Shown one piece after another: positions 15,402 through 46,090 of a DNA stretch of 64,000 nt. A model generated the notes under the pieces. That model did no database searches, was not told the DNA's origin, and saw only the letters and a list, made by a program, of their open reading frames with translations. A program made the position numbers and the translations under genes. Numbering within the stretch: position 1 is the stretch's first letter; every line of letters begins with the position of its first letter. Source of the DNA: an uncultured Clostridia bacterium (lineage in GTDB: Bacteria > Bacillota > Clostridia > Christensenellales > UBA1242); the NCBI GenBank assembly GCA_934772445.1, contig CAKVMJ010000001.1, positions 6,727 to 70,726 on the forward strand. Direction: 5' to 3'.

Positions 15402-16292
15402 TTATTTTTTTTCTTTTTTATTTGTTTTACCAGCATTTAAAGTTTCTGCCATAGTGGTTGCCAATGTGGCAACATTTTGCAAATCACTAGGAACAATAAT
15501 CTTTGTGCTTTGGCCATCTGCTAAATACTTCAAAGCTTCAAATCCTTGCAATGTTAGATAAGCAGAATCTGGTTTTGCTTGCATAATTTTCTTTATTGCT
15601 TCAGCAGTACCTTCGGCTTCAGAAATTAAAGAGATTTTTTTAGCTTCTGCTCTTAAAATTGCAGATTCTTTTTCACCTTCAGCAACTAAGATACTACTCT
15701 TCTTTTCGCCTTCGGCTCTCAAGATTGCTTCTCTTCTTTCTCTTTCTGCTCTCATTTGTTTTTCCATCGCATCTCTAATATCTTTTGGAGGAAGAATATT
15801 TTTTAATTCAACACGATGAATTTTTATTCCCCAAGGATCGGTTGCTTCATCAAGAATAGAACGCATTTTGGTATTAACAATATCTCTTGATGTTAGAGTT
15901 TCATCAAGTTCCATTTCACCAACAATATTTCTAAGAGTGGTTGCAGTTAGATTTTCAATAGCAGCAAGAGGTCTATCCACGCCATAGCAGAATAATTTTG
16001 GATCTGTTACTTGGTAATATACCACTGTATCTATTTGCATAGTTACATTATCTTTTGTAATAACAGGTTGAGGTGGAAAATCCGCAATTCTTTCTTTTAA
16101 ATTTAGTGGAGTTCCTGCAACTCTATCAAAGAAAGGTAAAATCATATGAATACCAGTTTCCAATGTTTTATGGTATTTACCCAACCTTTCAATAACTAAA
16201 GCAGTTGATTGTTTTACAATCTTAACCGATGCTATTAAGATTAAAAACGCAACAACAGCTAAAACAATTAAAATTATAGCAAATGTACTCAT
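15402..16292 (-). CDS. SPFH/Band-7 (stomatin-like) membrane protein
   Basis: N-terminal TM helix, an SPFH core (VKQSTALVIERLGKYHKTLETGIHMILPFFDRV) and a C-terminal AEGEK repeat helix. Translationally coupled to nfeD (4-nt overlap). Confidence 0.85.
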   Translation of the reverse strand: MSTFAIILIVLAVVAFLILIASVKIVKQSTALVIERLGKYHKTLETGIHMILPFFDRVAGTPLNLKERIADFPPQPVITKDNVTMQIDTVVYYQVTDPKLFCYGVDRPLAAIENLTATTLRNIVGEMELDETLTSRDIVNTKMRSILDEATDPWGIKIHRVELKNILPPKDIRDAMEKQMRAERERREAILRAEGEKKSSILVAEGEKESAILRAEAKKISLISEAEGTAEAIKKIMQAKPDSAYLTLQGFEALKYLADGQSTKIIVPSDLQNVATLATTMAETLNAGKTNKKEKK

Positions 16293-16729
16293 TCTTTATC
16301 TCCTTTCTCAACGATATATTTATTACCGCTAATTTTTAATACTCTAACCAACTCACCTTTTTGAATTGGTTTATTATCCACTGAAACAACATTCCAAACA
16401 ACTCCATTAATCTTGATTGTTCCCATATTATCCTCAGTGATATCTGTTAACAATTTATATGTTTCGCCAAAAGCACTCTCGGCATTTGTTTTTGTGTTAT
16501 CTTTCTTTAATAAAAACTTTAAAGCAATTTTTCTTAAAGCTAGCAACAAAACTAAAGACAAAACTATAAAAACAACAAGTTGAATTTCCCATCTAACGCC
16601 TACGCTTGCAAGTATCATACAAACAATACCTCCAGCCACAAACCAGATAGAAGCCATTTCCATTGTAATAAATTCTATAATTAAGCTAAGAGCCGTAACA
16701 CCTAACCAAACCCAAATCATCCAATCCAT
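16289..16729 (-). CDS. NfeD-family membrane protein
   Basis: Three N-terminal TM helices plus a C-terminal OB-like domain (GTIKINGVVWNVVS...GELVRVLKISGNKYIVE). Shows the classic NfeD-SPFH operon pairing. Confidence 0.8.
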   Translation of the reverse strand: MDWMIWVWLGVTALSLIIEFITMEMASIWFVAGGIVCMILASVGVRWEIQLVVFIVLSLVLLLALRKIALKFLLKKDNTKTNAESAFGETYKLLTDITEDNMGTIKINGVVWNVVSVDNKPIQKGELVRVLKISGNKYIVEKGDKE

Positions 16730-16761
16730 AGTTTCTCCTTTTAAAAAATCAATAAATAGTT

Positions 16762-16789
16762 TTCCAAACCCTCCACCTAGGGTTTGGAA
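16762..16789 (-). terminator. terminator-like hairpin downstream of the giant gene
   Basis: TTCCAAACCCT (16762-16772) pairs with AGGGTTTGGAA (16779-16789): 11-bp perfect stem, 6-nt loop. On the minus strand it is followed by T-rich sequence, though the T-run is not immediately adjacent. Confidence 0.55.
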
Positions 16790-16848
16790 CTATTTTATTA
16801 ATATATATTATAATATTTTTTTATTAATTCAAAATGAATCGAATAATA

Positions 16849-19800
16849 TTAAGTTGGAACATGATAATAGTAGGCACTTTGCCAACGAGATGCACTTAAT
16901 GCATCAGTTTTGATACTTCTATTAGAATTCATCAATGATGACTCATCATAATAGTATAACACACCATTTTCTACATGGTCAAATATAACTACATGTTGAC
17001 CATTATAATGTACTATATCACCTTTCTTTATATTTGAATTAACTTTTCCACCAACTATAAAACTACCATTATAATTACCATAACCACTTGACTTTGCAAA
17101 GGCTAAATATCCTGCACTACCATTTTGCTTACCTAGATAACCATATAGTAATCTAACAAATCCCCAGCAATCTGTATAGATTAAACCAGAATTATTTTTT
17201 ATCATATTTATAGGAGCTGATAAATTATATTTAGTTACACCATCACCGCCATTATTTGTGTTGGCGCGTTTATCGCATTGCTTTGTGTAACTATCACTAT
17301 AATAGTGGATTGCATAATCGTATGACCATTCTACACCTTCTTGTGCGATAAAGTAATTAATAGCATTTATAACCCCCGGTACTTCCCCAGCTGGAGTATT
17401 ATCACCTCCACCCGGAGATGGATCCGGATCGGTTGGGTTCGTTGGATCTGTAGGATCAGTTGGATCTGTGCCTGAACCACCGCCCGGATTATATCCCGGA
17501 TTTAAACTTGGATTAGTTCCGTTTGCTTGGTCCTTACCTGGAAGAAGTTCTCCACCAGAATAAGCAAGTGACCAACCGAAATCGCAACTAGCAACTTTTC
17601 CGATAACTTTATCATATAGAGAATTACCAGAAGCAGTATAAGCTCTAACATCATAACTCAATTCATCATAAGTCATTGTGCCTTCTTTTAAAGCTCTAGT
17701 AGTGATTAAGTTATATAAATTTGGATGCCAATTATGATTTGAAGCTTTTAATTGAGAAACTGTATCAAAATCAATTTCCAATGTGATAGTTTCACCATTA
17801 TTGATAGTTTTTCTATCAGAAGCTTTAACCAAATTTGGATTTGAGAATAAACTTTTCAAATTGTAATCAATTGTTACGCTTTGATTTGCGTTAATAGCTT
17901 GTTGCCTTGCATACTCACGCCTTTTATCATCATATTCTGAACCTAAATATTGTGTTGTTTCTTGTCCATAAGATTTACTACCACCTGAAATTGTCCAGTT
18001 TTGGGTTCTTCTAGGAGGACCGCAATATTCTGCATTGCCTTTTGGTTCTGCATTATATGTTGCAGTTATTTTTGAATGTTCATAAACATAACTAATAAAT
18101 TCATAGTTATAATATAAACCATTAGACAACTCAACATTTAATTCGCAAAGCACTACTGGAATTAATCTTACATAACCTTGAACTGTTAATGTTCCGATTT
18201 CAATGGTTTCTGTTTTTGTACTGAAACTATAATTATCTGTACCCCAGCAATTATCCGGATCATCTACATAGTCATCAACCCAAATTGTTACTGGTACTGA
18301 AATCTCTCTTCTTGATATAATATTACCATTTTCATCATAAGTATATTCATACTCAGTTTCATTTTTAATTTCTTGGTGTCGTCCAACCCACTTTTTCATA
18401 TATTCAGTTCTAGTTGAATATCCAGAAGTACTACTGATTTGATAAGTGATATTTTGTTTTACATGTTGAGTTCCAGCAATACCAACATCAATAGTTGAAT
18501 ACCTACTTGATTGTTTTAAACTACCACCAGATGATGGAAGATATGTAAATGTATATGTTGCAGTTACATCTGGACTATTGAAGTCTGTTTGACCTTTTGT
18601 TGAGATGATGACCTGACCTGTGGCATCAATCAATTCAACCGTTCTATCAAGATGGCTTATCTTATATGGATCAGTTCCGCTATAACGCATACTTGTATTT
18701 GAATAAGTATCGCAATTTGGATCTGTATAACCAAGAGTTAAGTTATTACCAAGAATTTTACCAATATAATTGAATGTGTTATCTGTATTGTGGAAGTCTT
18801 GACCTGCTACAACAACTCTTGTTTTATTTTGAGTGAAGCCCGGAGTATCAAAACCAAGCCTATCAAACACACCAGATGAAGATAAAGATTTTGGCAAGTT
18901 TGCTTTTCGTTTAGTTGTGCAATTCGCACCCCTGCTTACACCATTACAAACCCAATAATCTCCATTTAATGTTAGCTTTCTACCATAATTTGTACAAGTA
19001 GATTTTTCACAATAATAACTAGAGATTATTTCATTAATCTTATATTTACCTTCTTCATAGCCATCGTTTCTATCGGTATATAATGTTGAAGTACTTTCAG
19101 TACTTGAAGAGATTTGCATTGTAACATCTCTAACAACTATATTTTTACTCTCTGTTAAAGATGAAGTACCAGCTGAATATCCAGCCAAACCTCCAACATA
19201 CATAGAACCCATTACAAAGCTTGAAACTCTTTGATTTGATGTATTATTTAATGAAAATCCTTCAACTCTTAAGTTTGTTGAACTACCCTTATTTCCAGCA
19301 TCTGTATCTATATATCCGAATAGTCCACCAACATAAGCACCACCAGATACTGTTCCGCCATCATCAAAATAAATTTTGCAATCTCCAATAATAGCTGAAG
19401 AATTTGCTAATGGGTCTGAATGGTAACTACCACAGATACCACCAACATAATCTCCTTGAGCTACAATTGAAGCTCCATTGTTAGAAACAGAGCCCAATTT
19501 AACATTTTGGCTTCCTCTAGTTGTACAATGGATTAATTCACCAACTATACCACCAACATACGAACCAGAAGCTGTAACTGAAGCACTATTGCTTGCACGC
19601 GTAACCGATGGAGATTTACATTCATCAGGTTTGATATTATTTTGACTATCATAAGCATACTCAATATCGCCCTTACCAAGAATACCCCCAACATAGTTTA
19701 CACCAGAAATTGGAACTGTGTTTGATGTGTTTGTATTTGTATCATTATCTCCTGTGATATAACAATCACCGATAGCATAACCACAGATACCACCAACATA

Positions 19801-22800
19801 CGAACCAGAAGCAGTTAAGCTATCATAAGTGTTATCTCCATTAATTCTATCTAATCTAGCAAAGCTATAGATTGAACCACCTTTAGAGTAACCTACAACG
19901 CCACCAACATAGTTAGTTCCGCCAACTCTTATTCCTCTATAAGAACCAGAGTAGCAAACTCCATGTAGATATCCTACGAATCCGCCAGTGTAATCTCCAC
20001 TAGCTGTAACTAAGATATTTAATCCGTTTTCATCTTTATTTGTTTTTAGTACCGCTTCAGCAGTTTCCATAGTAACAGCTTCTCCAGCAACACCACCTGT
20101 TTTAGTTCCGCCATTAACAGCTATATTTTCAATATTTCCGTTAACTTCTGCGTAACCAACATATCCGAAGGCACCACCAACATTACTATTACCATTGATT
20201 GAAGCAACACCATTTTGGATATCAACTCCACCACCAGTATAGCCAGATGTTGCACCAGAAACATATTTAGCATCTTGGTTAGCTCCATCAACTAATGGAT
20301 AATGATAAGCATAACTATTATTTGTTTTGTTAAAATCGTTATTTCTATCGTTTTGACCAAAGATTTCTTCATTGCCTGTTGATGGTTTTTTAACTGTATC
20401 AAATCCACCAGCAACATAACCAGCAACACCACCAATATATGCATTACCAGAAATGCTATATGTGGAATCACTAAATAATACTTGAATTCTTTCAACATCA
20501 ATACTTTCACAAACATAACCAGCAACACCACCAACATACGAGCCTGTGGAACTATCGCCAACAACTGTTACATTTGAAACTACAATAGATGTGTGAAGAT
20601 TTGTATTATTATTGAATGATGATTTCTTCTTTTTAAGAATACTACCATCAATATAACCTACAACACCGCCAACATAACTTGAACCAGTTATCTTCTGGTT
20701 TTCATTACCTTTTAATGAGAATTGACCAAGGATATCTCCTTCTTCAACCTTACCAGCAAATCCACCAACATAGGATAAACCATTGATTATAACTGAATCT
20801 GTGGTAACTGCTGCACCATTATATATATCTGCATAACAAGAATATCCAATAAATCCACCAACACAATCACTATTTGAAGAGATTGCTGAATTTTTAATAT
20901 CAATTCCACCGCTACCATATAGTGCAACTATAAATTCTCTTGGTTTATTATCTTTAGTTAAGTCAACGCCATATTTTAATAATACAGCACCAAATCCGCC
21001 ACCAACGCTTCTACCATTAGCAGTAAGATTTAAGTTATTTATCTCAAATCTATTCTTTTGATCGGCATCATCTCTTCTTAACGCACCAGAACCGCCACCT
21101 GCAAATGCATAAGTATTATTTCCATCGCCTGTTCCTGATGGTTTAATTCCTTCATATAAATACCAAGTTAGAGTTTTGCCTTGAACTTTATAATATTGAG
21201 AGAAATATGCATTAACTTCATCTTCGCTCAATGCTTTACCTGTTGCGTTAACTGTTGCATTATTTAACACAGTACTTGCAACATCGCCATAACCTACAAC
21301 GCCACCGACTGCATAAACACCTTCAACATTAGCATTATTCAATACAATTCTGCCAATGAAATTATCGCTATAACCAACTGCACCACCAACCATTGCATTA
21401 CCTTTAACAGTGATGTTTGCATTATTAGTTACTAGGTCAACACCTGCAACGATATTACCTTCACCAACAAGTCCGCCAACCCTATTTTGATTTGCTGATA
21501 CTTTAATAGTACCTGCAACCCAAACTAGGTTATCTTTTGTACTAGAAAGAGTATTACTACCCATTCCACCAACTAATCCACCAACTTTAACAGATTCAGC
21601 ATCTATAAATTCTTCAAGCCAACTTAAATAACGAGAATCTGAAGATTGTAATTCTTTTTGTTGACCATTTTCTGTAATCATCTTGCTTGGAAGAACAGCA
21701 ATATATGTGGAATTAACCATAATATTACTAAATGCTTCTAAGCCTCTAATATTATTATCAGCATTACCAACAAGTCCGCCAACGGATTTACCATTAGATG
21801 TTACATTAACACCGCTATCAGATATTAATGCGCCAACTTTATTTAATCTTAAACCAGCATAACCAATTGCGCCACCAGTGTTTGCACCTTTAGTTTGACC
21901 TCTATCATCAATTCTTGTTGAATTAACGAGTGTTATATTTCCAACATCAATATTATTATCTCCGTTGAAAATGAAATCTCCGCCAGATGCATCTTTATAT
22001 ATATCAGTGCTACCAATTGCACCACCAACATTATCACCATTTGCATTTAATGTTATGTTATAAGCCAAGATTCTGCGTTTTGCTCTATAGTATGGTTTTC
22101 CATCAACATCAGTTTCTGGAATTAATCCAACCTTTTCTTCATCAAAGTTTTTACTTATAAAGCTGCCGTTTGCATTTTTCTCATACGATAAGATTGTTTG
22201 ATTTACATGAGCTGAAAGCCTCATATAATCAGCAATCTTTCCGCCTGAAACTTTATATAACATAAAGCCTTCGAATGCACCAACTACGCCACCTATATTA
22301 TCGCCCATTGAAGAACTTAATGTTAGGTTTCTAACAGTTATTGTTCCACGCTCGCTTCCGCAATATGAATAATAACTTCCGCCATAAATATATGAACCGC
22401 CTGTGTTTGAAGTGGTTTTTGTGTAGTGTCCTAAATCCAAGGTTGATTTACCGAACGCACCACCAACATAATCACCTTGAGCATTAATTGTAACGGCATC
22501 AGCCATATTAATTCCGCCTACGGTAATTGTTCCATAAATTCCAACTTTTTGGTTTGCAAATTGCTTATCTGTACTGAAATTATCAACGAAATTATTTGTT
22601 GTAATCAATCCAGCAACACCACCAACAAAGCCTTCATTTGCATCTGTTTGGTCTTCTGCAAGCCTACCGCCTGTTAATTGCAATGCCTTAACACTAATAA
22701 CACCTGTAATTCCACCACGAATATATCCAGCAATACCGCCAACATATTTACCAGTTGTGGAAATTACCACATTATTAACATTCAACACTGCTGATAGTTT

Positions 22801-25800
22801 GCAATCTCTATTTGCACTAGAAACATTATCATCTCCAGCTTCTTTTGATTTATTATTTCTCCAAATGCTATTATCTCCAATACTTCCACTCATACCGCCA
22901 ACATAATCCATTGTTGAAGCAACATTTGTGTCTTGAACGAAAATTGTACCATCTAAAGCACCGCTAAATCCAGCAAGTCCGCCAACAAACGAACCTTGTG
23001 CTGTTACAGTTGTTTTATTAACAAATGTATTTGTTTCGTTTGAACCAGAAATTGAAGCATTTGAAATTTCCCTATAAACCTGACCTTGATCTTGAGTTTT
23101 ACCAACAAGATAAAGATTTAATTCACCAGCAATACCAAATCCACCACCAACAAACGCACCATCTAATAAAGTATGATTTTCTTTATGTACGCTTGCATTA
23201 AATGAACTTGTAACTGCATTACTTGTGTTTTTATCAACATCTAATTGAACATTTGATGCCATACCAGTTAATTGTCCTGCGATACCACCTAGGAATACGC
23301 CATTTGTTGTTGCGTTTATATCCTTAGCAATAACATCATAAAGCATACTAACCGAACCTGCAACACCACCAACATAAGAATAATTTTTCTTATAATTTCT
23401 AACCGCACTTGAGAATTTAGATTTTAAGTTATCCTTAATCTCTTCAAGTTCTCTGATTATATCTAGAACTTCATCTCTATTTTCAATCGCATCTTTCAAT
23501 GTTTCATTGAATTTAGTTTTATAACCATCGGCTTGTTTTTTCAATGTTTCTAATTCGTTTAACTCATTCTTCAAATCGCTTGATTTCTCAATTGCAGAGA
23601 TTAACTTATCTCCTTGAGATTGCAATGTTTGAATTTGTTTTGTTAAACTATTTATTTCTTCTTGAGCATATTTGCAAACTATATCAATAGCACTCTTTTC
23701 TAATGCTTTATATCTACTTACAAATTGACTCTTAGAATAACGGCGAATTTCCACATTGCCCTCACTATCTGTAATTCTTTGAGGAGTGATTAATTCGTTA
23801 TAATCTTTCTTTAATTTAGAAAGTTCGCTTTCAAGTTTTGATTTATTTGAACTTGATAGAAGAGGTTTGAACCCTGCAATTTTTCCAGTTGAGCCAAAGT
23901 AGTTAGAACTTAAAGCCGAACTTGAAACGCTACCAGATGCATATCTTGAGTAAACACTCTCAGCATCGTTTGCAACATAAACATAATTGCCTGCTTTATT
24001 TTTGAAGGTATGCATTGAATTTTCAACTTTAGCAGATTTTTCAGCAAGCTTATCTATCTCGGCCGAAATATTATCATAAGCTGTTGAATCACCTTCTTGA
24101 AGTTTTTGTTGTAGTTCCTTCTTTTTATTGCTTATATATTTATTAATTGCATTAATTATCTTATTAACTTGATTAATTATATTACTATTGATTTCATCTA
24201 TAAAGTCATTAAATAATTCTGCATCATTAGCAATTTCTAATAAGCCAATATAATAATCTCTTTCTTCTTTATTCAAATCTTGTTTATCAAAGTATTGCTC
24301 TTTATTTTTCATTAGAGTGATTAACTCTTCCAAACTTTGTTCAACTTGAGGCTTTAATGTGTTTGACAACATTGAATAATCAATTAAATCAATATTACTA
24401 AATTCTTCAGCATTCCTATAAGGTTCTACCATCGCATTTAATGATTCACAATCATTAATTGTTTTTTCAATTTGGTCTAGCAATTTTTCAAATGCTTTTC
24501 TAAGTCTTGAATCTAAGCTATCACCAACACTCTCTATTTGAGATGTTACATCTGCTTTTGTGATATTTGATTGTTCGATGTCTGATGCCATACCAGCCAT
24601 ACCACCAACATATCTTCCTTTAGCAGATACATTTATATCTTCAGCATTAACATTATCTAGTAATTCGCCAAGACCTGCAATACCGCCAACATAATCTGCT
24701 TTACCAGATGTTGAAACTCTAATAGTTAGAGCATTACTTTCTGTGATTGATGCACTACTATAACCAGCAACACCACCTATAAAGCCCATACCTTGATCGT
24801 TTGCCATAGATGAAACAGATAATTCTTTAACATTGATAGTTTGAATATCGCTACCAGCATAACCTGCAACACCACCAACGAAGTTTCCGCCTTCAACTGA
24901 ATCATCTCTAGTTGTACCAGCAGTAACACTTACATTTTTCATATCATAAATCAATGCTGTTTGTGCGCTATATTCACTATAGATTAAGCCATAAGCATAA
25001 CCTGCAACACCGCCAACATAATTACCTAAGCCTTTAATTGTGATAGCACCATTGCCACTACTTGATGGAGCAACTCTAAATCTATAAATTGTTCCATAAA
25101 CTTTACCAACAACGCCACCAACATAATCGCTATTACCAGAAACTGAAACTGAGCCATTACCAGCAACAACATAAGGTTTTGTAATATCTAAGCTAGCATA
25201 TCCTGCGATACCACCAACATAATCTGCTCTATTCTTTTCATCTTGATAACCAACATTTGAATCAATTAAGCAAACAGATTCCAATGTTCCTTCTGCAGAA
25301 CCAACCACACCACCAATGTAATCTCCATTTCCTGTGATTGTGGAGTTTGCAACAAATGTATGAGAAATTAGATATGTTTCTTCTTGACCAATTGTACCAG
25401 ATTGAACATAACCAATCATACCACCAGTCATCTCGCCTGAGTTTGTGATTGTACAACCAATTACGCAAGCAGATTGAATACTTGAAGATGATGAACCAGC
25501 AATACCACCAACCAAGCTTGAACTTTCATCAATACCTGTGATATTAGATTTATAAATAGCAACACCGCTTGAGATTGAACCATTATTAACACCAACCATT
25601 CCGCCGATATTCATAATGCCAGAGATATTAACTCCGCTTTCCATTGCAGAACCAACCATAACAGCACCATAGCCTCCGCCAATTGTACCGCTATTAACAC
25701 CTGCAATAGCACCTGCATTACTACCATAGTTATTATTAAATGCACCAATTGTTGAATTTGTAACTTTTACATTTCCGATTGTTCCAAAGTTTTTAGAAGC

Positions 25801-28800
25801 AATAATACCAATATTATTTTTTCTTGATTGGATTGTACAACCACCAGCGAAAATCCAATTCAATGAACCTTCATTTTCACCAACCACAATTGCAACATCT
25901 TTATCATAATCTAATTGTTCATCAGTTAAACTTAAAGACTTGAATGTGATACCAGCGATTGTTCCGCTATTAACATCAAATAATGGTCCTTTAAGTTCGA
26001 AACCTGTTAATGTGATTCTAAATCCAATAAATTCTTCTGTTATATCTTTGAAATTGATAGGCTCTTCAGCAACTGTTCCTAAATTATAAACCTTTGCTTG
26101 AGTGCTATCATTTAAGATATAAACTGGGTAATCAATTCTATCTTGCAATCTTAAATCTTTATATCCATAAATATCTGAAGTTAATAAATATCTTGCAAAA
26201 TCTCTTTCACTCTTAATAATATATGAATTTGATTTTTGTTGGAATAGATTATATGTACTACCCTCTAAAACAGAATTTGGTTTTGATGGGAATATATTTT
26301 CAATATCGCCATCTTTTGCTTGTCCGTTTGGATAATTTATTGTACCCTCTTCTGCATTTACATAAATCTCATTTGAATCATTATCAACATTATAAACAAG
26401 TTTTGCTTCAATACCTGTTGGAATAACAACACCTTGTCTTGAATTATATAAATAATAGTTTGTATCTCTATAAGATTTATCCCAAATATTATTTCCTTCA
26501 TCATCAATATTAATGAAATATGAAATATTCTTATCTAGCAAGTCATCTGTTTTTGCATTATTGAATGTGTTAGTTCCGGTATCTGAAGTTCTATAAGTTT
26601 GGACCTCAGCATTTTTATCAATAGTTATTTCAATACCAACTAAGTCAACTTTATAATCAATAAATTCCATAGCGTGGAAACTTTGAGAGATTCCGCTATA
26701 ACTTCTAGTTCTATTGATATAAGCTAATCCCACTGCAACTAATGAATCTTTTCTTTCACCTGTTGGAATTTGGTCATCATTTGTTGCATCGGTAATAGTG
26801 ATATCATAATTCTTAACATCACCATTATAAGTTGTGTGATATTTTGCAACCCAATCAGTATTAGCAGTTGAATAACAATCTTTAATAATACCAGCATTTT
26901 CATAAACAAATCCGCTAACAACTAAATCTTGTTTTACTATATCTTTTTGAGTTTGAATATCTTTTTCTCTATATACATTACCAATAATCATACCAGTATA
27001 AGTTACAACCGCACCACTTCTATAAATATCTGAATTATTATTCTTTAAGAAGCTTGAAACGATTGTTGGATTATCATAGTTTCCAGAACCATTTATGTCA
27101 CTTGTAACTTCACCGAATGTTACACAGTTAAATACTCTACCATTGTTTGTTCCGATGAAGCTATATTCACTTGCATCTTCCATAACTTTAATAGCAAATC
27201 CAGAGATTATACCTGTGCTTTCTAAAGTATCAATCTTACAAGAAGATAAGATTGGATAATCCTTACCTCTATTTGCTGAAATTAGAGGTGTGTTTTCTTG
27301 AGAATTTGTTAAATCTTTATTTCTACCAACCATAACGCCTGCAAATTCTTGAGGAACAGTTACATCAGCATCATCTATTAGGATATAATAACCTTCTGGT
27401 GCTAGAGTTGGATTTCCTAAAACGATTTCTGGATTTAATTTAGTACCAGTTTTGAAATCAAATTTTCCTAATTCAACTGGATTTAACATTGTAGCCAAAC
27501 AATTTACTTGTGAGAAGTTTCCGTTTGTACCCATTTGGATAGAAACAAATTCATCTCCTTCAAGTTTGTTTCCACTAAGTTCGATGAAATCTGCATAGCC
27601 AATTGCTATAGTACCATTTTTAGAATTATCTAAATCTGTATATGAATCATAATCATAAGCTTTAGATAATATTTCTGTACTCATAGCCACATCTGCATAT
27701 TTAGCATAGAATTCTGCTACGAAATATACTTCGCTTGTGTTATCTGAATTACAAATTGAAGCAATTGTATTTAGGTTTGCATTATATGTTACCTCAACAT
27801 TAACATTATTTAAACCATCTTTATCATTTTCACAAACAAATCTTGCAATAGAATAACCTTTTCTAAGCTCAATAGTTGTTAAACTTGCAGAACCAATAAT
27901 ACCACCGATATTATTATAGAAATCACTTCTTGAATAGTAATAAATATCACCATACATAACAAAGTTTGTAATTTGAACAACTTTAGCAAAACCGATAAGT
28001 CCGCCAATATTCATTTCAACTAAGTTACTTTCAACTGCTTGAACATCACCTGCGTTGTAAACAAATGAATAAGTACCATTATCTGAATAACCTACAAGTC
28101 CGCCAAGGTTTATGATACCAACAGAATCAAGAATATCTCCATTTACGGCTTTAACCTTTGATGTTGAAACATTACCAAGGTTAAACATATTAGTTACCAC
28201 ATTTCCGCTTGCTTTATTGTAACCAATCAAGCCTCCGATATATGCGTTATCTTTCACACCCTCTAAGATGCTTACATCAATATCTGAATAGTTTCCATAT
28301 TCATTTTCTGTTTGTTTATTTCCAGAAATTGAACAATTATCTTGAACATAACCTACAAGTCCGCCAACATAATTATAGAAATAATGAGCATTAACTTTAA
28401 TCTTTGAAATATTTAATCTACCAGCTTTTGCATTTACAACATTGGTATATAACATACTTCCAGATATTCCACCAACATAGATTGAATATGTTGAAGCTTT
28501 TGAAACTTCCTCAACACCATCTCTTTGAAGGTTTATATCTATTCCATAATTATTTGAAACATTTGTGATAGTTGAATAACTTGTGGAAGCAACGATACCA
28601 CCAAAATACATATCAAAGTAAACGCCATATCTTCTCATATTATAAGTATAATTTGAGTTAATATCATAATCAGCATTAATATTAATATTTTTTAATTCAA
28701 CATTACTAATAGAGTTTGAATTAGATTTTGCAACAACACCTGCAAAATTCAAATCTATCTTATTATCAATAATCCTTCCATAATTAACTAAAGCATTAAA

Positions 28801-31800
28801 TACAAGCTTATTAGCTTTTGCTTCAACTATTATATTATATAAACTTGAACTTTGAGCAAGACCGATTAATCCACCAATTGTGGAAGCAGTACCTGTTCTC
28901 ACTTCAATAGCTTCAATGTTATTATCAAATATCAACTTAATATTGCCATTTTCTTTACCAACGATATTACTTGCTGTAACTTCACCAAAGATTACACCAA
29001 AGTTTTGAATATTATTAAAGCCTTCCTCAATTTCGTTATAAGCTAATTCAAATTTTAAATTTCCATTTGATTTAATTGTGAATGTACATTCCTCAATTGT
29101 AGATAAATTAACTCTTGTTGCAATTATACCGAAGTTGCCATTTTCAGAGCCATAAATCTTACCTACATTTCGGCTATTATCAATTTCTATTTCGAAATCA
29201 ATATCTTTTAATACTGCACCATTAAGTTCGTTTAACAATGCATAAACGCTATAATATTCATCATCAACAATTTGACCTGTTTTTAGAACTACTATAGGTT
29301 TTCTACCATCTTCATCAACTAAGCCATTTAATACGCCTCTAAATACAGTATTAAATCTTGCATAGTTTGAACGATTTGAGATTTGAGTTAAGTCGATAAT
29401 ATATTTACCATCATAACTTGCATCTGCATAAACATCTGTGCTAACAGTTTCCATAGTATAGAATCTAGCATTATCTGGTTTAGATAAAGCATCAATCAAT
29501 TCTTGACTATTTGTGATTGTTGCAAAGTTTGAATATCCTGCAAGTTTATATTTAGCTAAATATTCATCACTAGCTTTCATCCAAACATAATTTTCTCTTG
29601 CAGTAAGATTCTCAGGATTTACTAATGTTGCATTAATCTTATAATCAACTTCCCTTTGTCCGTTTCCATCAATTGCATAAGAGCCATCAGCATTATATTT
29701 ATAAATTGTATAAACATTTGTAAATAAGTTTACTGAACTCATCTTATCAATTGTTTCATTGGTTGAACCAGAAGGAAGAGTATCAACATTCTCATAGAAG
29801 CCTGTAATATTTTGAAGATATTGTTGAGTGCTGGTTGGTTTACCATTCTCAACCATTATGCTTGTGTATTTATAATCACCAAATACTTCGCCGATAGATT
29901 TATTATCTATCTTCTCAGCTTTAGTTACACCATTTGAAAATAACTCTGCATTAGCCAAATTATAAGTGGTTGTTCTTGATGTTGATGGCAATGTTTGATT
30001 TATAACACCATAAATCATACTTAAATTTTCATCATCAGCATTACCACTAGTGGTTAATGTGGCATAAGTTGTTGAAACAACTCCATTGAAGTATGAACCA
30101 AATTCATTACCAGTTAAATCACCAGTTTTATCTTGCTTAATGAAACCATATCTATCAATTACAGAATTTTCACTATAATTTATAAATGCACCTGTGGTTG
30201 TGTTTGTGATGATATTATTATCAACCATAACACTACCAATCAATGAACCAACATAAGTAAATGAACTTGAATTATTCTTATAACTTAAGTTTGCATTTTC
30301 AACTGCATCCATATTGTAATAAGTATATTCATTTTCTTTACCAGCCACTTGTTGTCTGCCAATTCTTGAATAAGATGTGATTTGTTGGTTACCAATTTCA
30401 GCCATTCTTAATGTGAATTTATAATCAACATTTGCATCTGTGAATAAATGAGAAACATTATTTTCAAGAGCAGTTCTAACCTTTCCGCCCCATTTATTTA
30501 AGCTTATAATATGTTCAAGATATAGAGCATAATTTAAGTTGAATGTTGAATGAGTTTCATCATCTTCATCAATAGCACCAACATAATAATAACCAACTGT
30601 ACCACCAACAATCTCATTTGCATAAACAGAAGATGTGGTATAAGAATATCCAATTAATGTAAAGTTTTCAGCATAACCGATTAATCCACCAGCAATTAAA
30701 GCATAATCACTTGTGATTGGAACTTTAACCATTGAATCATAAATTGTACCGCCATTATTATAACCAGCAATACCACCAATAGAAATAATCTTACCTCTAT
30801 AGTTTTCTGTATCAACAGTAAATAAACCACTTGTTTCAACAGATTCATTAACTTTTCCTAAGTTATTCCAATTATTTATTTCAGCATCAAATACAGTTTG
30901 AGTTTCGTTTTCATATAAAACTTGAGCTTTTTCAATAACACCCTTATTTTCTGCAACGATACCGCCACCATAGTTCTTTGCTTTAATTCCAATTTTCTTC
31001 TCATTATTTGGAGAATAAATTGCAACATTTGAAATCTTTGAATTACTACCTAAGTAACCAAATAATCCACCTGCATTTTCTGCGAATATATCAAATTCAC
31101 CTTTAACTGATACATCAGAGATTGTTGCTTTAGTTGCAGTGTAAACACCTTCATTAAAGCCATCATTCTTGATTGAATTTTCAATTCTCTCGCTTTCGTT
31201 TGAATCAATATTGCTATCTATATAAACAAGACCTGCAACTGAACCTGCATAAGAAAGTGAGCCAATCTTATTACTAATATAACTATTTAAAGAAGTATCA
31301 TTCTTATTTTCAATATCAACCAACGCATAAGATTTAATAACAGTGTGATCCATTTGAGTGGTTGCAAATTTCTTATATGTACCATAAGGGTTTGTATAAG
31401 CACTTGTATAGATTAAATCTTCATAAGTTGAACGAACTTTCAAATCTTTAACTTCAATATCATAGATATTAGTTCTATCTGCATTTAGTTCAACTGTATC
31501 ATCAATAATTAATCCTGCAATACCACCTACTAAGTTTTTACCTTTAACAACTGCGGATTCATTATTAGATGAAGTTAGGTTTACATTTATAATTGTACTA
31601 TTATAAATACTACCTGCTAATATACCTGCTTTATCTGGAGTGGTTTGTACACCTAGATATGCAACTAAATCAATATTTAAGTTTTTAATAACAGCACCAG
31701 CATAAGAATCTGTGATACCTAATTTATTTCTATTATCAACATTCAAACCAATTTGATTAAATAAACCAAAGTTATGAGAATTTATATTTGCTTCTGTTTC

Positions 31801-34800
31801 GTTTTTGAATGTTAAATTCAAGTTGTTAATACTTAGTCCGTTTCCTTCTAAGTTGCCTAGGAATACAACTTCTCTTAGAAGTACACCGCTCTTAGGTGTG
31901 TTCCAAATATTAACTTCATTTTCAATAGCAAAATCTAAATCGTTGATTTGTCTAATATAATTAATAGTTTTGAATGTGTCGGTATCTTGCTCTTCAGCAG
32001 TTTTACCAAAAATTCTTACTGTTCTATTATCATTACCTGTATAAGTTTTAGAATTTTCAATTATGAAATTAACAAATTGTTCTGCTGTGCTTACAAGCAA
32101 AGGATTTTGTCTTGTACCATACTCGTAATTATCTGCGTATTTATAATTATAAGTATATTGTGCACGCTCAATCAATGTTAATTCACTAAAGTCTAGTTCT
32201 GAATCAACGCCAGCATCTTTATCATAGATAACTTCGCCAGTTTCTTCGTTTATCATACCAGAAAGTATTCTATGAGAGAATGTTTCAACTAAGCTTGTAT
32301 TGCAAAGTTTTGGGCCAAGTTCAGTCATAGTCCATACTGAATTTTCTTCATCATCTAAGAAGATAAATCCAATAAAGAAGTTTGATTGTTCAAATTCTGG
32401 AGTGTTTCCAGTTTTCTTATTTTTCACGCCTGAAATGCCAACTGCTTTTTCATAAGGAAGTTCGCTTTCGCCTTCGCCAACTAGATAATAACAATCAATA
32501 AATTCGGCAGTGTTACCCCCTTCTTCATCTAGCCATCTATTAAATGCACCGTGAGCAAGAGAACCGCTATTACCTGCTTTTATTGCGGTGTTATAACTTG
32601 TTGTATAAGCATTCTTAATCGAACCTGTATTATCATAAACAAATCCGCTTGAATTTGAAGAATGAGTTTTTAGCGCAACTGCACTATAAGCATTTTCAAT
32701 AGAACCAGTATTTGAATAAACAAATCCGCTTACATTATTTTCACTTGAAACTGCATAGTCTTGAGTTGTTCTATATTTATCTGAATTTTGATTAAATTCA
32801 TAACCTTCAACAAATGAATTTAAAATCTTACCTGTGTTTTCAACAACGAATGCACCAGTTTCGTTATAATCAACACCTTTATAAGCATTTTCAATTCCAA
32901 CTGCTTTCGCAAATGTGGAAGAAATAATATTTGTATTTTGAACTGCTATTCCAGCAATTCTACCAGAACCTGCTAATTTAAATGGATTTACGGTTAATGT
33001 AGCTGATTCACCTTCACCATTTATATTTCTAACACCTTCTTCAGAAATTTTATTTTTCCAAATTGAAATCTCATTATTTATTTGAAGATTATTGTTTTCA
33101 TCAGTAGTTAAAATATTATTAATACCAACGAATGAATTTGTAATTGCACCATTATTAATAGCTGTGATACCACCAAATGATAATTTAGTGTTTACGCCAT
33201 CAATAATACCACTTGTTAGGATATGAATATTAACATCTTTCATATCACCTTTACCTGTTGAAATAACTTTGATATTTGTTACGCTACCATTATTAACACC
33301 AGCTAACACACCAAAATTTACTTCTTTATTAAATGCTAAGTCTAATTTATGGCTTGAAACTGTGTTGTTATAAGTACCAAGATTTTCAGCGATATCAGCA
33401 CTTGTTACAAAGTTATTTATATACTTATAAACAAGGTTTGTATCATCAGTTGTATATTTCTTAATATCTTCATCACTAGTTAATAACGAACCAATATCAA
33501 TTATCATATTTTTAACGATTGGTGTGCCTGTTTTACCTGTTGAAACATCTGTATATAATTCAACAATTTCACTAAACAAACCAACATTAACTGTTTCCAA
33601 ACCTCTTGATTCTCTTAAATCAAAGCTATCGATTTTTAAGATATATCCATTACCATCTAATGATGCCATATTACCAACTCTTGGAATATAATTTTCCAAA
33701 GTGATATCATTCATCATTATATAATGTTGACCTTCAAGCATTTTCTCAAAATCATCTTGAGAATAGATTGGATTTGGATGATCATAAGTTGTATTTTCTT
33801 TAACAACTAAGTCAAATTCATATTCAATAGAATATAGATTATATTTACAATCTAATTTCTTATCATAAATTCTTGATCTATAGCCATCGTTTTCATAAAC
33901 ATAATTATCATCATTCATTTCATCATCATTGATAACATAAGATCTAATTTCACCATCTGCATCGTAGAAGTAATCAAATCTAACAACAATTGTTCCAACA
34001 TTACCAACATTTATAGCTTTTAATGAATAATAATAGAAATTATATTTTGTACCATTGATAACTTTTGTTTTTGTTTCGGCTTTAAAGATATAGCCTCCAC
34101 AATTCATACCATCAACTAATTTAATTTCGCTTACTTCACCATCGTTATTTAGAACTTTATAATAGAAGTTTGCCTTAGAACCTGTAACGAATGTTTTTGT
34201 TCCATCTTCTTCAATATAAATTCCACTAATAGCAAATTGTGCTTTTTCTTTATTAGAGAAATCCATCATTGAATATCTATTTGTAATATCAATAAATTGA
34301 CCATATAAGTTTACAAAGTCAGCATCGTTTTGACTTGCATCAAATCTATATAATTTATATTCATTAATATTATATATTCTATTCTTATATAAAACTATAG
34401 AGCAAACTTGTTTTTCATAACCATTACCATTCTCGCCTAGAATTTCTTTAATTTCTTCCAAGTTATAGAATCTTTCAACCGGTACTGCAACTCTGAAGTA
34501 TTCATATTTAGTATAATTACTTTCTGCTTCACCTATTGTTAGATTTAAATGGTTTTGGCTATTAAATTTCCAGTAGATTTCCTTTTCTCCACCTTTGAAT
34601 AATCCACCATTTTCAATCATATATTTTAAGCTATAATATCTTTGCTCATTTGCATAGTAATATTGAATATAATCAAGATAAGATTCACCTAAAATATTTT
34701 CAGCACTAAATGTTACACCATTAATTTCAAATTTGAAATCTAATTCTGCAAAATCATTTAGAGTTAGAGGATCACCATTAGTTTGACCCGGAATAATATC

Positions 34801-37800
34801 CAAAACATTTAATAGATAATATCCATTATTTAATAAGAAATATTGTCCGCCACTAATCATTTCTTTTAGATTGATATAGTTTTTAGAAATTGGTTCATAT
34901 AAGTAAACATTATCATCAACTTCAGTTAGATTTAATAATGGATGATTATATTCATCAAATCTATCTAAAATTTCAGTTCTCTTATAGTAACCTGTGATTG
35001 TAGCGAATTTATCAACCGCTTTACTCTTTTCAATTTCATCATCTAAAGCAACATAATTACCATTAAAGATAATATATTTACCATTTTGGTTATCTTCTTT
35101 AAATCCATAAATTTGTCTGAAGATATTTGTATCATCAGATGAATCCTCAGATGGATTTATTAACATTTGTAAACCATTTGAAGTACCATTTAACACTTCT
35201 AATGTGTTTTTCTCTCCATTAGTGGTTGAACCTGCTAATGCAACCTCTTTAATTTCCAATGGAACAACTTGAACTGAAACAGATGCAGATGTTGGATTAA
35301 TTACGCCAACTTTAGAAACTGTTGCAGTGATTTCAATCATTGTTACATTTTCAAATTTATCAAGATTTAGAATATTATTTGCTTCAAAGAAACTATTTAG
35401 GCAAACAAGATAATAATTTTTACCTTCTTCAAATATACCATTAAATCCATTATCACCATCATCAATATAATTACCATTATTCTTTTTAAATGAATTTAAA
35501 CCATTTTCATCAACAATCAATAATGTTTGATTATAATTTTCATTTGCATATCTAACAGAAACTTCAACAATACTATCGAAATTCTTAGCACTCCAGAAGA
35601 TTTGTTTGAAATCACCTGGTTGAATTTCTGTTTTATTATAGAATGATGAGCTATTATTGATATAAACATCAATTTCTGGCAATGGTTTAACTGTTAAAGG
35701 TTTAATCAAAGTTGAACCAACTTGAGTACCTTTACTATTATAAGCTTTAATTACAAGCTTAATTTCTCTCTCTGGATTTTCTAACTTATAATTTTCATCT
35801 AAGCTAAATCTTAAGAAGAATATATCATCAAATACAATCTTTTTATTAATCTCATATTCACTTGATGTTTTTTCTAGTTTTACAACTCCATTTTCATCAA
35901 TTGTAGTTAAGATTGGATAATATTCAATTGTATGATATAAATCCTCAACTGGGTCTTTTTGTAATTTAGCTCGAACCTGAGTTATATTCAAATATTTATA
36001 TAAATCTTTAGAAGTTTCATCTAATTCAACAGTTAAATAACTGCAGTTACTAAATTTCTCTGAAACCTGTACTTTTAATAATCCAGTATAGCCCGGAGAT
36101 AATGTAGTACCTGGATTCTCCGCAAACTTATCATCGCTATTTTCATTTTGAGAATAGAATGTTGCAGTAATCTTTTCAGGGTCTGCTGCTGCAATAACGA
36201 AATCATAAGTATCGTTAGCTAGAGGATTACTTTCAGCATAGAATTTAACTAAATATTTTAATTCATCAAGATTAAAACTTGTTGCATTCTCTTTATATCT
36301 ATCTTTATTAAATCTAAATGTTACATTATAATGAATGATAAATTCAGAACTTCCCTCAATCTTAGTAACAAATGCTTGGTTTTGTTCAATAACAACCAAA
36401 GATTTGTTTTCAATATTTTTATATCTTTCATCAAATGGAGCATTCTCTAAACTAACTAGAGAATCAACTTTTGTATATGTTTTATTAGTTGTATCGTAAT
36501 ACAAGAAATCAATGAATATTTTTTCATTAAGAATAGCTAAAGAATTAACATCTTCTGTACCATCAGCATTATAAACTTTAATTCCAGTTACGCCATCTTC
36601 TTTATCTATAATTGCAACATTTGCAGTTCTAACTTTAATATTAACTTCATCACTACCGCTTGGTTGAATTTGAGCATCTTCATTTTCAATTACAACTTGC
36701 TTAGCTTTAGCATCAACACTAAATGCATATTCTTTAGCAAGAGCATCAATTGTTTTAATATTCTTTCCGTTTGCAAGTTCGGATTTAATATTAATTTCTG
36801 TATCATCAGTTTTAATATATTTTGCATCAAAACTTGTGATACCACTAATATTTTCAAGGCTCAATACTGGAGTTATTTTCAAATAAACTTTGCCAGTTTT
36901 AGTTCCTTTAAATATTAAAGAAGATAAATTATTAATACAATCTATATATACAATGGAACCAATATTTAAGTCTGTTAGGATTTCGCCAGAATGAATTATT
37001 TGAATTTGACCATTTGTATAGCCATCACCTAATGTTTCTGCATCTAATATTTCTATAATAGCACCAATATTTTGGTTTGCTTTATATATAATTTCACCAG
37101 AAACACCAGCATTAAAGATATTTTCAGATTCTAACAAATAATTAGCTTCTTCATCAACATAAATTTGTTCGAAATTCTCAACACCAACAGACACTGCTGA
37201 AACTTCTTGTTTTTCAATATTAGTATTATATAATTTAACATTGCTTAAACCATCAACAACAACCAAATGAACCACTGTTCTAATTTCTGGATTAAATGTG
37301 TGATAGAAAGTTAAATCAACAACACCTGTTCCTAAAGTTTCAATTAAATTGCCTTTAATTTTTAAAATTTTATTATCAACATCTGAAGATTTGATTGAAA
37401 TTTCACCATTTAATAGCAATTCAACATAATTTGTTTTAATAGAACTTACACTGCCACCAAGATTGATATTAATTAATCTTGAGTAGTTATAATTTGTGGC
37501 ATTACTAAATATGCCATCAACGCCAATCAAATATTTATTATTAACAACATTTGTTAAACCATTATCATTACTATTATAGAAGATAACAATGTTTTTCTCT
37601 GTATCTAAACTATTAGATAATTCTATATATGCCCTATTATTAAATCTTAGATTATATAATGAAGCATAAAGATTTTCTGGCAAATAATCATACAATGGTA
37701 TCAATTTACCATTAAGTAATTTCAATATAATAGGTTGACCATCGTTTGCCTTCTCATTAACAAACCAATCACCAGCATTAACTGTTCCATCAGTAATATT

Positions 37801-40800
37801 AAATCCTGAGAAATCAAAATCTGCAACTTTTGGAATTGTACTTGTAACTGTATTTACTAATTCACTATTTGATAATGTGAAGAATTTATTTCCATTGATT
37901 ACAGCATAGAAATTCTTGGTAACTGCAACAGCATTAATATTTGCGATTTCATCATCGGTTTTATTAACAGTATCTAAACCACTAACTAAGCCATATTCTG
38001 AAGAAATATTTGCTTTTACATAAGAATTTTCAACCGAATATCTATTATTTACAGTTTCAGTTTTGATTGAGCCATCTTGATTATAGCTTTGCAATTCAAC
38101 AACATCTTTCCAAACACCAACCAAACCTGAAACTTTAGGCATATTTGCGTTTGTATAAATGCTTCCATCGAAATAAGTTTTTGAAAGATTCAAAGTTGTT
38201 TCAGCATAACCAATTAAACCACCAATTGCGATTTCTTCATCGTTCCAGCCTTCAAAATTCTTTCCATAGATATTACCAAAGAAGTTTACACCATCTAAAT
38301 TAGATGTATTAAATCCCCTAACATAAGTTGCATTAATAACAACCATATTAATAGAACTATTAACTCCTGTGGCATAACCAATCAAACCACCAACATTTTG
38401 ATTAGCGACAATAGCTGAAGCATCAATACCATTTGTGTCTATTTCAGAAATTAAATAAACTTTTGAATCATTTAATTTTAAATATCCGCGAACCGCACCA
38501 ACTATACCACCAACATTTTTCTTTGCTCTTAGATTTGGATATGAAACCAAATTTTCAAATACCATAGAACCATCGGCATAACCAACAATTCCACCAACAT
38601 TTGCATAGTTAAATTCACCATCTTCATCAACTACAACAATATTTGCACTTGAAGCTAAATCATATAATGAATTTGAAACTGATGACCTATAATCAGCATA
38701 GCCAACAATTCCGCCTACATTTATAGATTTTGTAACAACACCACTTTGTTTATTTGCTTGAATAAATATAGCAACATCGCTATTTACAGATGTGGTTGTA
38801 ATATTTGAAGTCTGTTCTGGTCTGCCACTAATAATAGCATTAACTACTGCATTTCCATTATTAATATCTGTTGAAATAGCCTTACCAACCATTCCACCAA
38901 TATTAATTTGTTTATAGTTATAATTTTCGTTTCCCCCAACAAAGTTATCTGACCAATTATTTGCATCAATATTTATAACGCCTTCAACTCTACAGTTTGT
39001 AATACTTGTTGAAGTTAAGCCTGCAATTCCGCCAATATTTAATGATTTAAAATCAATTTTACTTGCTAAAACAGAATTATCATTTTCATCAGCAATTTGT
39101 GTTACAATTTTTGGCAATTTAATATTTATATTCATATTAACGCTTAAATTTTTAACAATTGCATTTGTACTATCAATAAATGGCAATACAGCGATATTTA
39201 AGTTTTTACTATAAGATTCACCATTTATCAAATTAGATAATTGGTTATTCTTTATAGTATCAGCCATTTCCTTTTCGTTAATATCCCAAGCAACATTTAA
39301 TGTGCTATATCTGCTATATGAAGTACCATTATATACATAATCTAATTTACCATTCAATGAGAATGTTGATAAATCATTACCTTCATTATCTTTTGCAAAC
39401 ACACCACTAATCTCATTCCAATCAAGTCCGTTATTTTCAGAAAGAGTTAGGTTGTTTTTCAAAACATAATAATAGTTAGTTTTTGAAGCCAAATCCAAAT
39501 ACATTTGTTTTAAATCGTTTATCTTTGAAATTTCAAATGCAGTTTCTTCAGATTTACCATCAGCCACTTTAACTCTTAAAACAATTTTAGTTGAAGCATC
39601 AACAGTGTTTCCAATTTGATACATACTATTTTCTGTTTGAATAGTTAAATAAGCAACACCAGCATTTTTAGGAACTATCTTAATTCTATTTGCATCAATG
39701 CTTCCATCTTCATTAACACCCTCAACTTCAAATACTTCGTTATCAAAGTTGCTAAGAATTATTCTATCTTTAAATACAACAACTGGTTCTGTTCTAAATT
39801 CAAGCTCGAATGAACTTGCAAAATTATCTCTCTTTTCGATATAAACGCCTGTTTCATCAACATTAGATAAGATAATATTTTCAATCTTATTTGCTCTTTC
39901 AATCTTTAAATTAACAAATTCAGCACCAACTAGTAATCCAAATTGTTCAACTGAAACTCTAAATTTAATATTTAAAGCGTTTGGATAAATCCAGTTATTT
40001 AATATTTCTTCAACATCTAAAGCAGTTAATTTATAATCTGTTAAATGGTTAATGCTTAGCCATTTATTAGCTATCATTTTTAATCCACTAACACCCTCTT
40101 CACTACCATCATAGCCGATTAATGAATAGAAATCCACTAAACGAACAGTTAATGAATTTTCATCAAATGTTGCAATATCCGAAAGCTTAACTCTTAAAAC
40201 ATTATTGTTCGAGAATTTAATTTCTCTTACAACAAGATTATTGAAGTAATCAACTCCATAATCGCTTTCAAATAAATACTTAAATTCAACACCAAGTTTT
40301 GATGAGGTTCTTAAACCACCCATTTCTGCAATTGATGGTTCAACACTATATTTTAATTGGTAGGTTGAATATTCATCAGCCTTATTTAAACCAACAGAAT
40401 TATAATCATAAATAACTGGTTCAACTTGGCTATTTATTGTAAATTTACTTAAAGGTTTGAAGCACCAAACTCTAACACTTTGTGAGTACTTTACAAGCTC
40501 ATACTTACCTTCTTCTTCATTCCATCTATAGCCAGAATAAGAGAAAGTTATAATAGCTGGTTCTGTAACGCTTGTAACAGCACCCGTGGTTACTATCTCA
40601 CCATTTTCCCAACTTAAATATTCAGAACCATGAATAGAAACTGAGCAATAATCAGTTATATCTAATCTTCTAGCCACTCTATTACCTAGAGCATCAACTG
40701 TTAGTATGTAATTATATAGTTTTAATCCAATTCTTGTTGGAGTTGATGAATTTTTATCATTAACTCTAACAACTAAATTTGAAATAGTTGAATATGAAAT

Positions 40801-43005: not shown

Positions 43006-43110
43006 AACTTTCATTCCATCCATAAACTTATTATTTGTAATTTTATTTTTATAATAACAAATCAAACAAAAATATTTAAGATTTATTATTACTTATTAAT
43101 TACTATTAAT

Positions 43111-45412: not shown

Positions 45413-45484
45413 TTTAAAACTCCTCCCTTTCAAGTTTTCAAAATCATTTCCAATAAAAATTTTTTTAAACATATTTTTTTAAAA

Positions 45485-45946: not shown

Positions 45947-45997
45947 TAAAATATTGCCATTTTTTAATAAAAAATACATTCTATTATTAAATTGGAT

Positions 45998-46072: not shown

Positions 46073-46090
46073 AATAGGAGTTTTAATAAT

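Follow-up and report, generated by a model that had tools for sequence, protein, structure and literature searches.

We describe here a giant open reading frame (ORF) in a 64,000-nt stretch of DNA from an uncultured Clostridia bacterium (assembly GCA_934772445.1, contig CAKVMJ010000001.1, positions 6,727 to 70,726; this whole stretch is referred to as the window). The giant ORF (16849..43065) is a single ORF with 8,738 codons, counted from the first TTG, and it lies on the minus strand, as do all parts of the giant gene for which coordinates are given below. The last 177 residues of the encoded protein (residues 8562-8738, V8562-T8738; 16852..17382) make up a divergent domain that, judging from profile comparisons, is very probably homologous to the papain-like NlpC/P60 superfamily, and that is likely to be catalytically competent, judging from its conserved Cys, His and Asp.

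We lean slightly towards reading the domain as an active peptidoglycan hydrolase that faces outward at the tip of a fibre. The giant protein would be exported (Sec) and lipid-anchored by its N-terminus, with ~8,500 residues that include GLUG-motif repeat arrays, and a 45-residue linker would join to its C-terminus a non-permuted NlpC/P60 domain with the catalytic centre Cys8633-His8691-Asp8707. The domain would then act as a peptidase or amidase on the stem peptides of peptidoglycan. A flexible leash would keep it at the far end of a very long surface fibre, away from the membrane, and it would cut whatever wall material comes within reach there: the walls of sister cells or other neighbours, or pieces of wall that have been shed. 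This activity is proposed because stem-peptide hydrolysis is what non-permuted NlpC/P60 domains predominantly catalyse.

Assignment of the terminal domain

The giant protein ends in ...GGGSGTDPTDPTDPTNPTDPDPSPGGGDNTPAGEVPGV...IYTDCWGFVRLLYG...KKGDIVHYNGQHVVIFDH...HVPT*. Both the Cys motif IYTDCWGFVRLLYG and the His motif KKGDIVHYNGQHVVIFDH, from which a first-pass annotation of the window had proposed a C-terminal papain-fold domain, are found in the terminal domain as quoted there. NLPC_P60 (PF00877) was the only Pfam family matched by the domain, with 20.3-21.3 bits and E-values of 2.8e-4 to 5.4e-4 over profile positions 13/14-101 of 105. NCBIfam gave no match for the domain or for the giant protein, PHROGs gave only noise, phmmer found no match to the domain in PDB, and a word-indexed search of 5.8 billion proteins with the domain found none. 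When 1.84 billion cluster representatives were searched exhaustively with phmmer, a single protein (P0001) matched the domain, with an E-value of 3e-4. Scans with the last 700 aa against GTDB genomes and with the last 483 aa against JGI metagenomes returned no match in either case. We note that the 1.84e9-protein library and the word-indexed search missed even the giant protein of the same species (a 7,150-aa partial product called on a metagenome contig, L002); giant and truncated proteins seem to be under-represented in the search libraries, so that the null results for other giants with such a tip are weak.

P0001 carries the motifs IYTDCFGYVRL and GKHVAIY, and on its own it passes the gathering score of NLPC_P60 (26.5 vs 23 bits). 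Iterated searches with small alignments yielded about 65 proteins, each ~290 aa long, whose sources are metagenomes (gut and other) and metagenome-assembled genomes (MAGs), and none of these proteins has a precomputed Pfam domain on record. Out of 64 relatives examined, 62 have an N-terminal hydrophobic anchor, which is followed by a short spacer and then the domain. All the relatives recovered are short proteins that stand alone, with no fusion to a large protein among them, and the gene neighbourhoods of the relatives are not conserved (loci including L001, L012, L013 and L015-L019). No relative was found in the IMG/VR viral contigs scanned with the family alignment. The relatives share 23-31% identity with the terminal domain over the whole domain, and the Pfam family that they match most often is NLPC_P60 (12 of 64; CHAP and Transglut_core, 0 of 64). 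From these sequence comparisons, we consider that the family is a distinct, divergent NlpC/P60 clade of uncultured gut Clostridia that was missed by the curated models.

The relationship was seen best in profile-profile comparisons (hhalign). Two reference sets were used: four E. coli K-12 NlpC/P60 proteins (mepS, nlpC, mepH and yafL), and a set of 12 sequences made up of these four and eight diverse phage tail-lysin NlpC/P60 domains, which were found by tblastn with a CwlO fragment. The family aligned with the E. coli set at 87-89% probability (P 2-4e-6) and with the 12-sequence set at 95.8% probability (P 8e-9). Against the latter set, the terminal domain alone reached 92% (P 6e-7), and the family without the window sequence reached 90% (P 1.6e-6). 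The reversed-sequence control gave 0.2% probability, and in the domain-alone comparison the reversed control had a P of 0.28. When a 5-sequence hidden Markov model (HMM) was searched against PDB, the top 11 matches were all NlpC/P60 proteins (CwlO, RipA-type, MepS), at E-values of 0.08-1 only.

Conservation within the family was counted in an alignment of 64 sequences (A3). The candidate catalytic Cys is Cys8633 (Cys72 of the domain; 17167..17169) in the motif IYTDCWGFV, and the candidate catalytic His, 58 residues further on, is His8691 (domain His130; 16993..16995) in the motif GQHVVIF; each is found in 63 of the 64 family members. Asp8707 (domain Asp146; 16945..16947) is invariant (64/64), and we infer it to be the third residue of the triad. 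His26, Tyr28, Tyr52, Tyr69, Asp71, Gly74, Arg77 and Leu78 are further invariant positions. Every hhalign alignment places D71-C72 opposite the D-C of DCSGFV and His130 opposite the His of HVGIY (MepS), and Tyr52 aligns with the Tyr of the pYrwGG motif of the NlpC/P60 set. The sole exception among the 64 sequences is P0063, which has lost both residues (Cys to Asn and His to Tyr), as expected of a catalytic pair.

Structure prediction by AlphaFold2 (AF2) from the single sequence of the domain was unusable, with a predicted local distance difference test score (pLDDT) of 42; the 64-sequence alignment gave a model with a pLDDT of 68.5 and a predicted template modelling score (pTM) of 0.69. Cys72 starts a helix (72-86) in this model, His130 starts a strand (130-138), and Asp146 comes just after a strand (141-145). 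From residue 51 on, the order of elements is a short strand with Tyr52, the Cys helix, a second helix and antiparallel strands, an order which we take to mirror that of MepS-type structures. Foldseek found no match in BFVD. The profile-profile homology, the conserved Cys, His and Asp, and their placement on the secondary structure all bear out the core of the first-pass annotation, i.e. an NlpC/P60-type Cys...His domain on a flexible tether that ends a lipid-anchored giant protein.

Several observations weigh against this assignment or against the hydrolase reading that builds on it. The match to PF00877 agrees with the first-pass annotation as to the family, but it stays under the curated gathering score of 23 bits and so outside formal Pfam membership. 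The AF2 model is of medium confidence only, its top Foldseek matches in PDB (MepS, 8xud_L; RipB, 3pbi) are not significant (E 0.033, template modelling scores 0.21-0.25), and a full-length HMM of the 64 sequences found no match in PDB (HMMER). The third His of MepS falls 1-2 positions off Asp146 in the alignments. No homolog has been characterised, so that substrate and activity would follow from the usual chemistry of the family; the extended shape of the fibre is assumed; and the location of the ~290-aa relatives near the membrane of their own cell is consistent with action on the wall of the producer. The sub-threshold Pfam score, the non-significant Foldseek result and the failure of the 64-sequence HMM to match anything in PDB could also be taken as signs that the domain is not papain-like at all and that its Cys...His pattern is coincidental. 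We consider such a chance resemblance extremely improbable, given the P values of 8e-9 and 6e-7, obtained in alignments that keep the catalytic residues in register, the result of the reversed control, the independent relative P0001 with its score above the gathering threshold, and the joint loss of Cys and His in P0063.

Other papain-like families were compared with the domain as well. A CHAP domain, which the first-pass annotation had offered as an alternative, was rejected, as the PF05257 profile matches neither the terminal domain (E<=10) nor the 64 relatives (E<=0.1). Its suggestion of a transglutaminase-like cross-linking function found no backing either: there is no match of the domain to PF01841 at E<=10, and hhalign gave 0.06% against a PF01841-bearing protein that is encoded next to a family member on locus L012 (a single-sequence test, and a weak one). 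LRAT and other papain-like Pfam families have no match to the domain at E<=10. The permuted lipid-targeting type (LRAT / Tox-Act1) is ruled out since Cys72 precedes His130 here, which is the canonical order in the peptidases and amidases; a circularly permuted core marks the lipid-targeting NlpC/P60 toxins (PMC11996579).

A papain-like enzyme with some substrate other than peptidoglycan could be a protease of host or bacterial surface proteins, a self-releasing peptidase, an acyltransferase or lipase, or a cross-linker of the transglutaminase type. The clade is very divergent and uncharacterised, it has DC[FW]GF in place of the canonical DCSGF, its likely triad is Cys-His-Asp as in transglutaminases, and NlpC/P60 domains with lipid substrates do exist (PMC11996579), all of which would suit such an enzyme. 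We nevertheless regard it as distinctly improbable in view of the negative results for Transglut_core, CHAP, LRAT and other papain-like families (including the hhalign comparison with the transglutaminase-core protein), the non-permuted order of the terminal domain as opposed to that of the lipid-targeting members, and the best sequence and fold neighbours, which are all peptidoglycan endopeptidases.

Anchor, body and linker of the giant protein

The true start of the giant ORF is probably the ATG at 43003-43005 (Met21) or the one at 43021-43023 (Met15). A lipoprotein signal peptide, MKKRLLVIVMTFICSLGFLFAC followed by G (42940..43005), was read by eye from the sequence. It has a positive n-region, a hydrophobic core and a lipobox (L-F-A-C; pattern [LVI][ASTVI][GAS]C, with the motif judged by eye), and the predicted lipidated Cys is residue 42. 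The N-terminal lipid anchor that the first-pass annotation had assumed therefore holds at the level of sequence. This signal peptide is the sole hydrophobic 19-mer in a scan of the whole protein, and no LPXTG-type sorting signal and no second anchor were found in the 8,738 aa scanned.

Asn, Gly, Ser, Ile, Val and Thr are abundant in the giant protein. Its body, scanned as two halves, gave no sequence match in Pfam, NCBIfam or PDB; scanned in 874-aa pieces, it gave GLUG motifs (PF07581) as the only matches above the cut-off (25.0 and 23.4 bits vs the gathering score of 20.5). GLUG-like motifs of the form G[GA][LIVF][LIVA]G were observed 46 times in the protein vs 0.9 expected. They are clustered at residues 1345-7958 with a spacing of often ~30-45 residues, and weak internal repeats coincide with the clusters. 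The spacing suggests solenoid-like repeat arrays in the stalk, and the composition together with the repeats suggests a beta-rich repetitive fibre. Besides the GLUG arrays and the tip, several thousand residues match no known family, and neither Pfam nor NCBIfam matched an RHS, LXG, filamentous haemagglutinin, PAAR or pre-toxin domain in the giant protein. The 3' third of the gene (18001-26000) has a GC content of 0.34-0.35 vs 0.27-0.30 for the 5' two thirds (26001-43065), and this rise roughly matches the region where GLUG repeats are densest; it may reflect amino-acid composition or a different origin.

The terminal domain is separated from the body by a Pro/Thr/Asp/Gly-rich linker, TNPSLNPGYNPGGGSGTDPTDPTDPTNPTDPDPSPGGGDNTPAGE (residues 8517-8561, 45 aa; 17383..17517), which is preceded by ...SCDFGWSLAYSGGELLPGKDQANG; no other part of the protein is rich in Pro. 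The linker contains the TDP-repeat tether noted in the first-pass annotation; the TDP units are encoded by a 9-bp tandem repeat of 2.9 copies inside a GC-rich patch. This patch (17385-17515), correctly described there as GC-enriched within AT-rich DNA, is the GC maximum of the window (51.9% GC vs a window mean of 29.2%, standard deviation 5.6%). Only 7 of 6,387 sliding 131-nt windows reach 51.9% GC, and the ten top-ranked ones all fall on the linker patch or on a tRNA-Ser gene. The feature to which the first-pass annotation had assigned the span 16849-17515 is real, but the boundaries of that span are off, as its 667 nt are not a whole number of codons. The stop codon of the giant ORF is at 16849-16851.

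Sister genome and strain alleles

Among GTDB species representatives, the closest genome is a Hadza gut MAG of an uncultured Clostridia bacterium (CAKVHY010000003.1), whose SMC is 94% identical to that encoded in the window. The ortholog of the giant ORF in this sister genome runs for at least 2,600 codons without a stop and ends in ...SCDFGWSLAKTSGTVIPGKEQTNG*, exactly where the window protein enters the linker. A block of ~1.9 kb (15621..17517, minus strand) is absent from the sister genome; it holds the linker and the domain, together with the downstream gene nfeD and three quarters of the next gene (SPFH/Band7), counted from its 5' end. The two genomes can be aligned again at the nucleotide level only from window position 15620, within the SPFH gene. 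The missing block is replaced by a short remnant (7768-7906 of the sister contig) that codes for Gly, Ser and Thr and is broken by in-frame stops, and the truncated 3' end of the SPFH gene follows it. The truncated SPFH gene left behind makes a deletion in the sister lineage the simplest reading; an artefact of MAG assembly instead is possible. Deletion or artefact alike, the giant body can exist without the enzyme tip. The body evolves faster than its housekeeping neighbours, with 67-73% vs 83% nucleotide identity to the sister genome.

The same locus is found at 98.5-99.4% nucleotide identity on several ENA metagenome contigs, and one half of the domain (residues 86-177; 16852..17127, minus strand) varies among these strains. 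Three of six contigs (L003, L004 and L006) carry a second, mosaic allele as compared with the other three (L002, L005 and L007), and domain residues 1-85 are identical. The second allele has four extra residues (QYSK) directly ahead of the His and more than 20 substitutions, all within residues 86-177. Between the alleles, synonymous divergence (dS) in this half is 0.30 and nonsynonymous divergence (dN) is 0.175, against a background difference of ~1%; the Cys, His and Asp are kept in both. By its sequence pattern, the allele difference is a recombination patch centred on the putative catalytic domain. Replacement of the domain by unrelated toxin cassettes was not seen among the strain contigs compared.

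We note two further features of the giant gene in these strains. On L004 (3-5571) it is called as two overlapping ORFs of 846 and 1,020 aa, and further clusters of differences lie inside the gene at ~19750 and ~21500 (19 and 15 differences per 250 nt). The split ORFs and the extra clusters could reflect a frameshift variant, more mosaic patches or assembly error.

These data bear on a second role considered in the first-pass annotation, in which the domain would be a non-catalytic wall binder that grips the peptidoglycan of the producer and turns the giant protein into a membrane-to-wall tether. NlpC/P60 folds do bind stem peptides, and the giant protein has no other wall-anchoring signal. A descendant used for binding only would be free to lose its catalytic residues, as P0063 has done, whereas both alleles and 63-64 of the 64 relatives retain Cys, His and Asp, and the module is dispensable in the sister genome; such a binder is very improbable. 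Taken together, the conserved triad, the sister-genome loss and the mosaicism among strains lead us to infer that an outward-acting catalytic role, the first of those considered in the first-pass annotation, is favoured over that of a passive anchor.

Genomic setting and possible roles

The window is AT-rich (29% GC). Downstream of the giant gene and on the same strand are nfeD (matching PF01957), the SPFH/Band7 gene (matching PF01145), plsX, rnc, smc, ftsY, ylxM and ffh; upstream of it are a divergent PP-loop ATPase gene, an M23 peptidase gene, yabP and yabQ (the M23 peptidase gene beside yabP and yabQ is at 44819-46743). The sporulation genes and the M23 peptidase point to a walled, spore-forming Firmicute host. 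The spacer of 119 nt between the stop codon of the giant gene and nfeD holds a terminator-like hairpin with an 11-bp stem and then a T-rich tail (16762..16789, minus strand; z-score -4.05), so that the transcription unit of the giant gene probably ends here.

Two other readings of the locus were rejected: a phage or mobile element by the housekeeping flanks, with plsX-rnc-smc syntenic in the sister genome, and a classic toxin-immunity pair because the stop codon is followed by the terminator and then by the nfeD-SPFH housekeeping pair. Elsewhere in the window are an 818-aa ORF (51063-53519, minus strand), which matches no Pfam family at E<=1e-4, and a leucine-rich-repeat protein of 488 aa (54559-56025, minus strand); both may be additional surface proteins.

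A tethered hydrolase could also work in cis and open the peptidoglycan of the producer itself, so that the huge protein can pass through it or settle in it. Conjugation, flagellar and secretion machines use dedicated hydrolases that act locally on their own wall. The C-terminus would leave the Sec channel last, the N-terminus is predicted to be lipid-anchored, the host appears to be a walled spore-former, and the other members of the clade, all short and membrane-anchored, have just their own wall within reach. We consider this role, the main rival of the outward-facing one, unlikely: the giant ORF stays open in the sister genome although the domain is gone, which means that the protein can be deployed without it unless another enzyme substitutes there, and mosaic variation at the strain level is unexpected for a housekeeping, self-directed enzyme.

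The outward-facing hydrolase that we favour can be compared with several known systems. In PDB, the nearest neighbours of the terminal domain by sequence and by Foldseek are NlpC/P60 DL-endopeptidases (E. coli MepS/Spr, MepH and NlpC, B. subtilis CwlO, M. tuberculosis RipA/RipB). In them, too, Cys comes before His, and their D-C-x-G-F-V and H-V-x-I-[YF] motifs align in register with those of the terminal domain. These endopeptidases are extracytoplasmic, and several of them (MepS, NlpC) are lipoproteins. Identity with the terminal domain is only ~20%, our family has Trp or Phe where these enzymes have Ser next to the Cys, the third residue is probably Asp instead of His, and the terminal domain has an extra N-terminal elaboration of ~65 residues with the invariant His26, Tyr28 and Tyr52. 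Furthermore, the known endopeptidases are proteins of 150-500 aa, whereas the terminal domain is the tip of a protein of 8.7 thousand residues.

By our comparison, the architecture as a whole most resembles phage tail lysins and Tox-NlpC/P60 polymorphic toxins. Phage tail lysins (of the type of Bacillus phage SPO1 gp12.1, a 'tail protein with lysin activity') have an NlpC/P60 wall-cutter at the end of a large structural protein, which meets the target wall from outside, but they are virion parts of ~700-800 aa, and the giant protein is a predicted chromosomal lipoprotein amid housekeeping genes. The C-terminal domains of Tox-NlpC/P60 polymorphic toxins are predicted to degrade the walls of target cells (Zhang et al. 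2012, PMC3482391). These toxins are likewise large, filamentous or repeat-rich exported proteins that end in a papain-like NlpC/P60 domain, and the tip here is variable among strains and lost in the sister genome. Unlike them, the giant protein has no recognised trafficking or pre-toxin domain and no adjacent immunity gene, and the variation here is a mosaic within one domain type, not a replacement of cassettes.

Giant surface proteins are known in Firmicutes, Ebh of S. aureus being one. Such proteins are, like the one described here, multi-thousand-residue and repeat-rich proteins of Gram-positive (gut) cell surfaces, and they are thought to bind host or prey surfaces. Giant surface proteins of Clostridia described from gut metagenomes carry recognisable repeats such as RCC1, Listeria-Bacteroides repeats, dockerin and leucine-rich repeats (bioRxiv 10.1101/2023.11.21.568195), whereas the body of the giant protein in the window matches GLUG only and ends in a putative enzyme domain.

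A more specific use of the outward-facing hydrolase would be as a contact-dependent weapon or feeding device: a fibre hundreds of nm long, on a scaffold that otherwise resembles nothing known, whose variable, exchangeable and losable tip, from a new NlpC/P60 clade, cuts the exposed walls of neighbouring Gram-positive cells, i.e. a Sec/lipoprotein analogue of polymorphic toxins that needs no dedicated secretion system and no linked immunity gene. We regard this as a quite unlikely extension.

NlpC/P60 is an ordinary and known type of enzyme; what is new here is the divergent, unannotated clade and the unusual fusion of one of its members to a giant protein in a lineage of uncultured human-gut Clostridia. 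The terminal domain is the only recognisable catalytic element in a protein of 8.7 thousand residues, and it provides an experimental handle on the function of such giants. Natural controls are at hand in the sister genome without the module and in the two alleles, which differ only in the half of the domain that bears the His and the Asp. If the enzyme acts on other cells, the giant protein would represent a simple form of interbacterial antagonism in the gut that is independent of secretion systems; if it acts on the wall of its producer, it would show how monoderms pass megadalton proteins through peptidoglycan.

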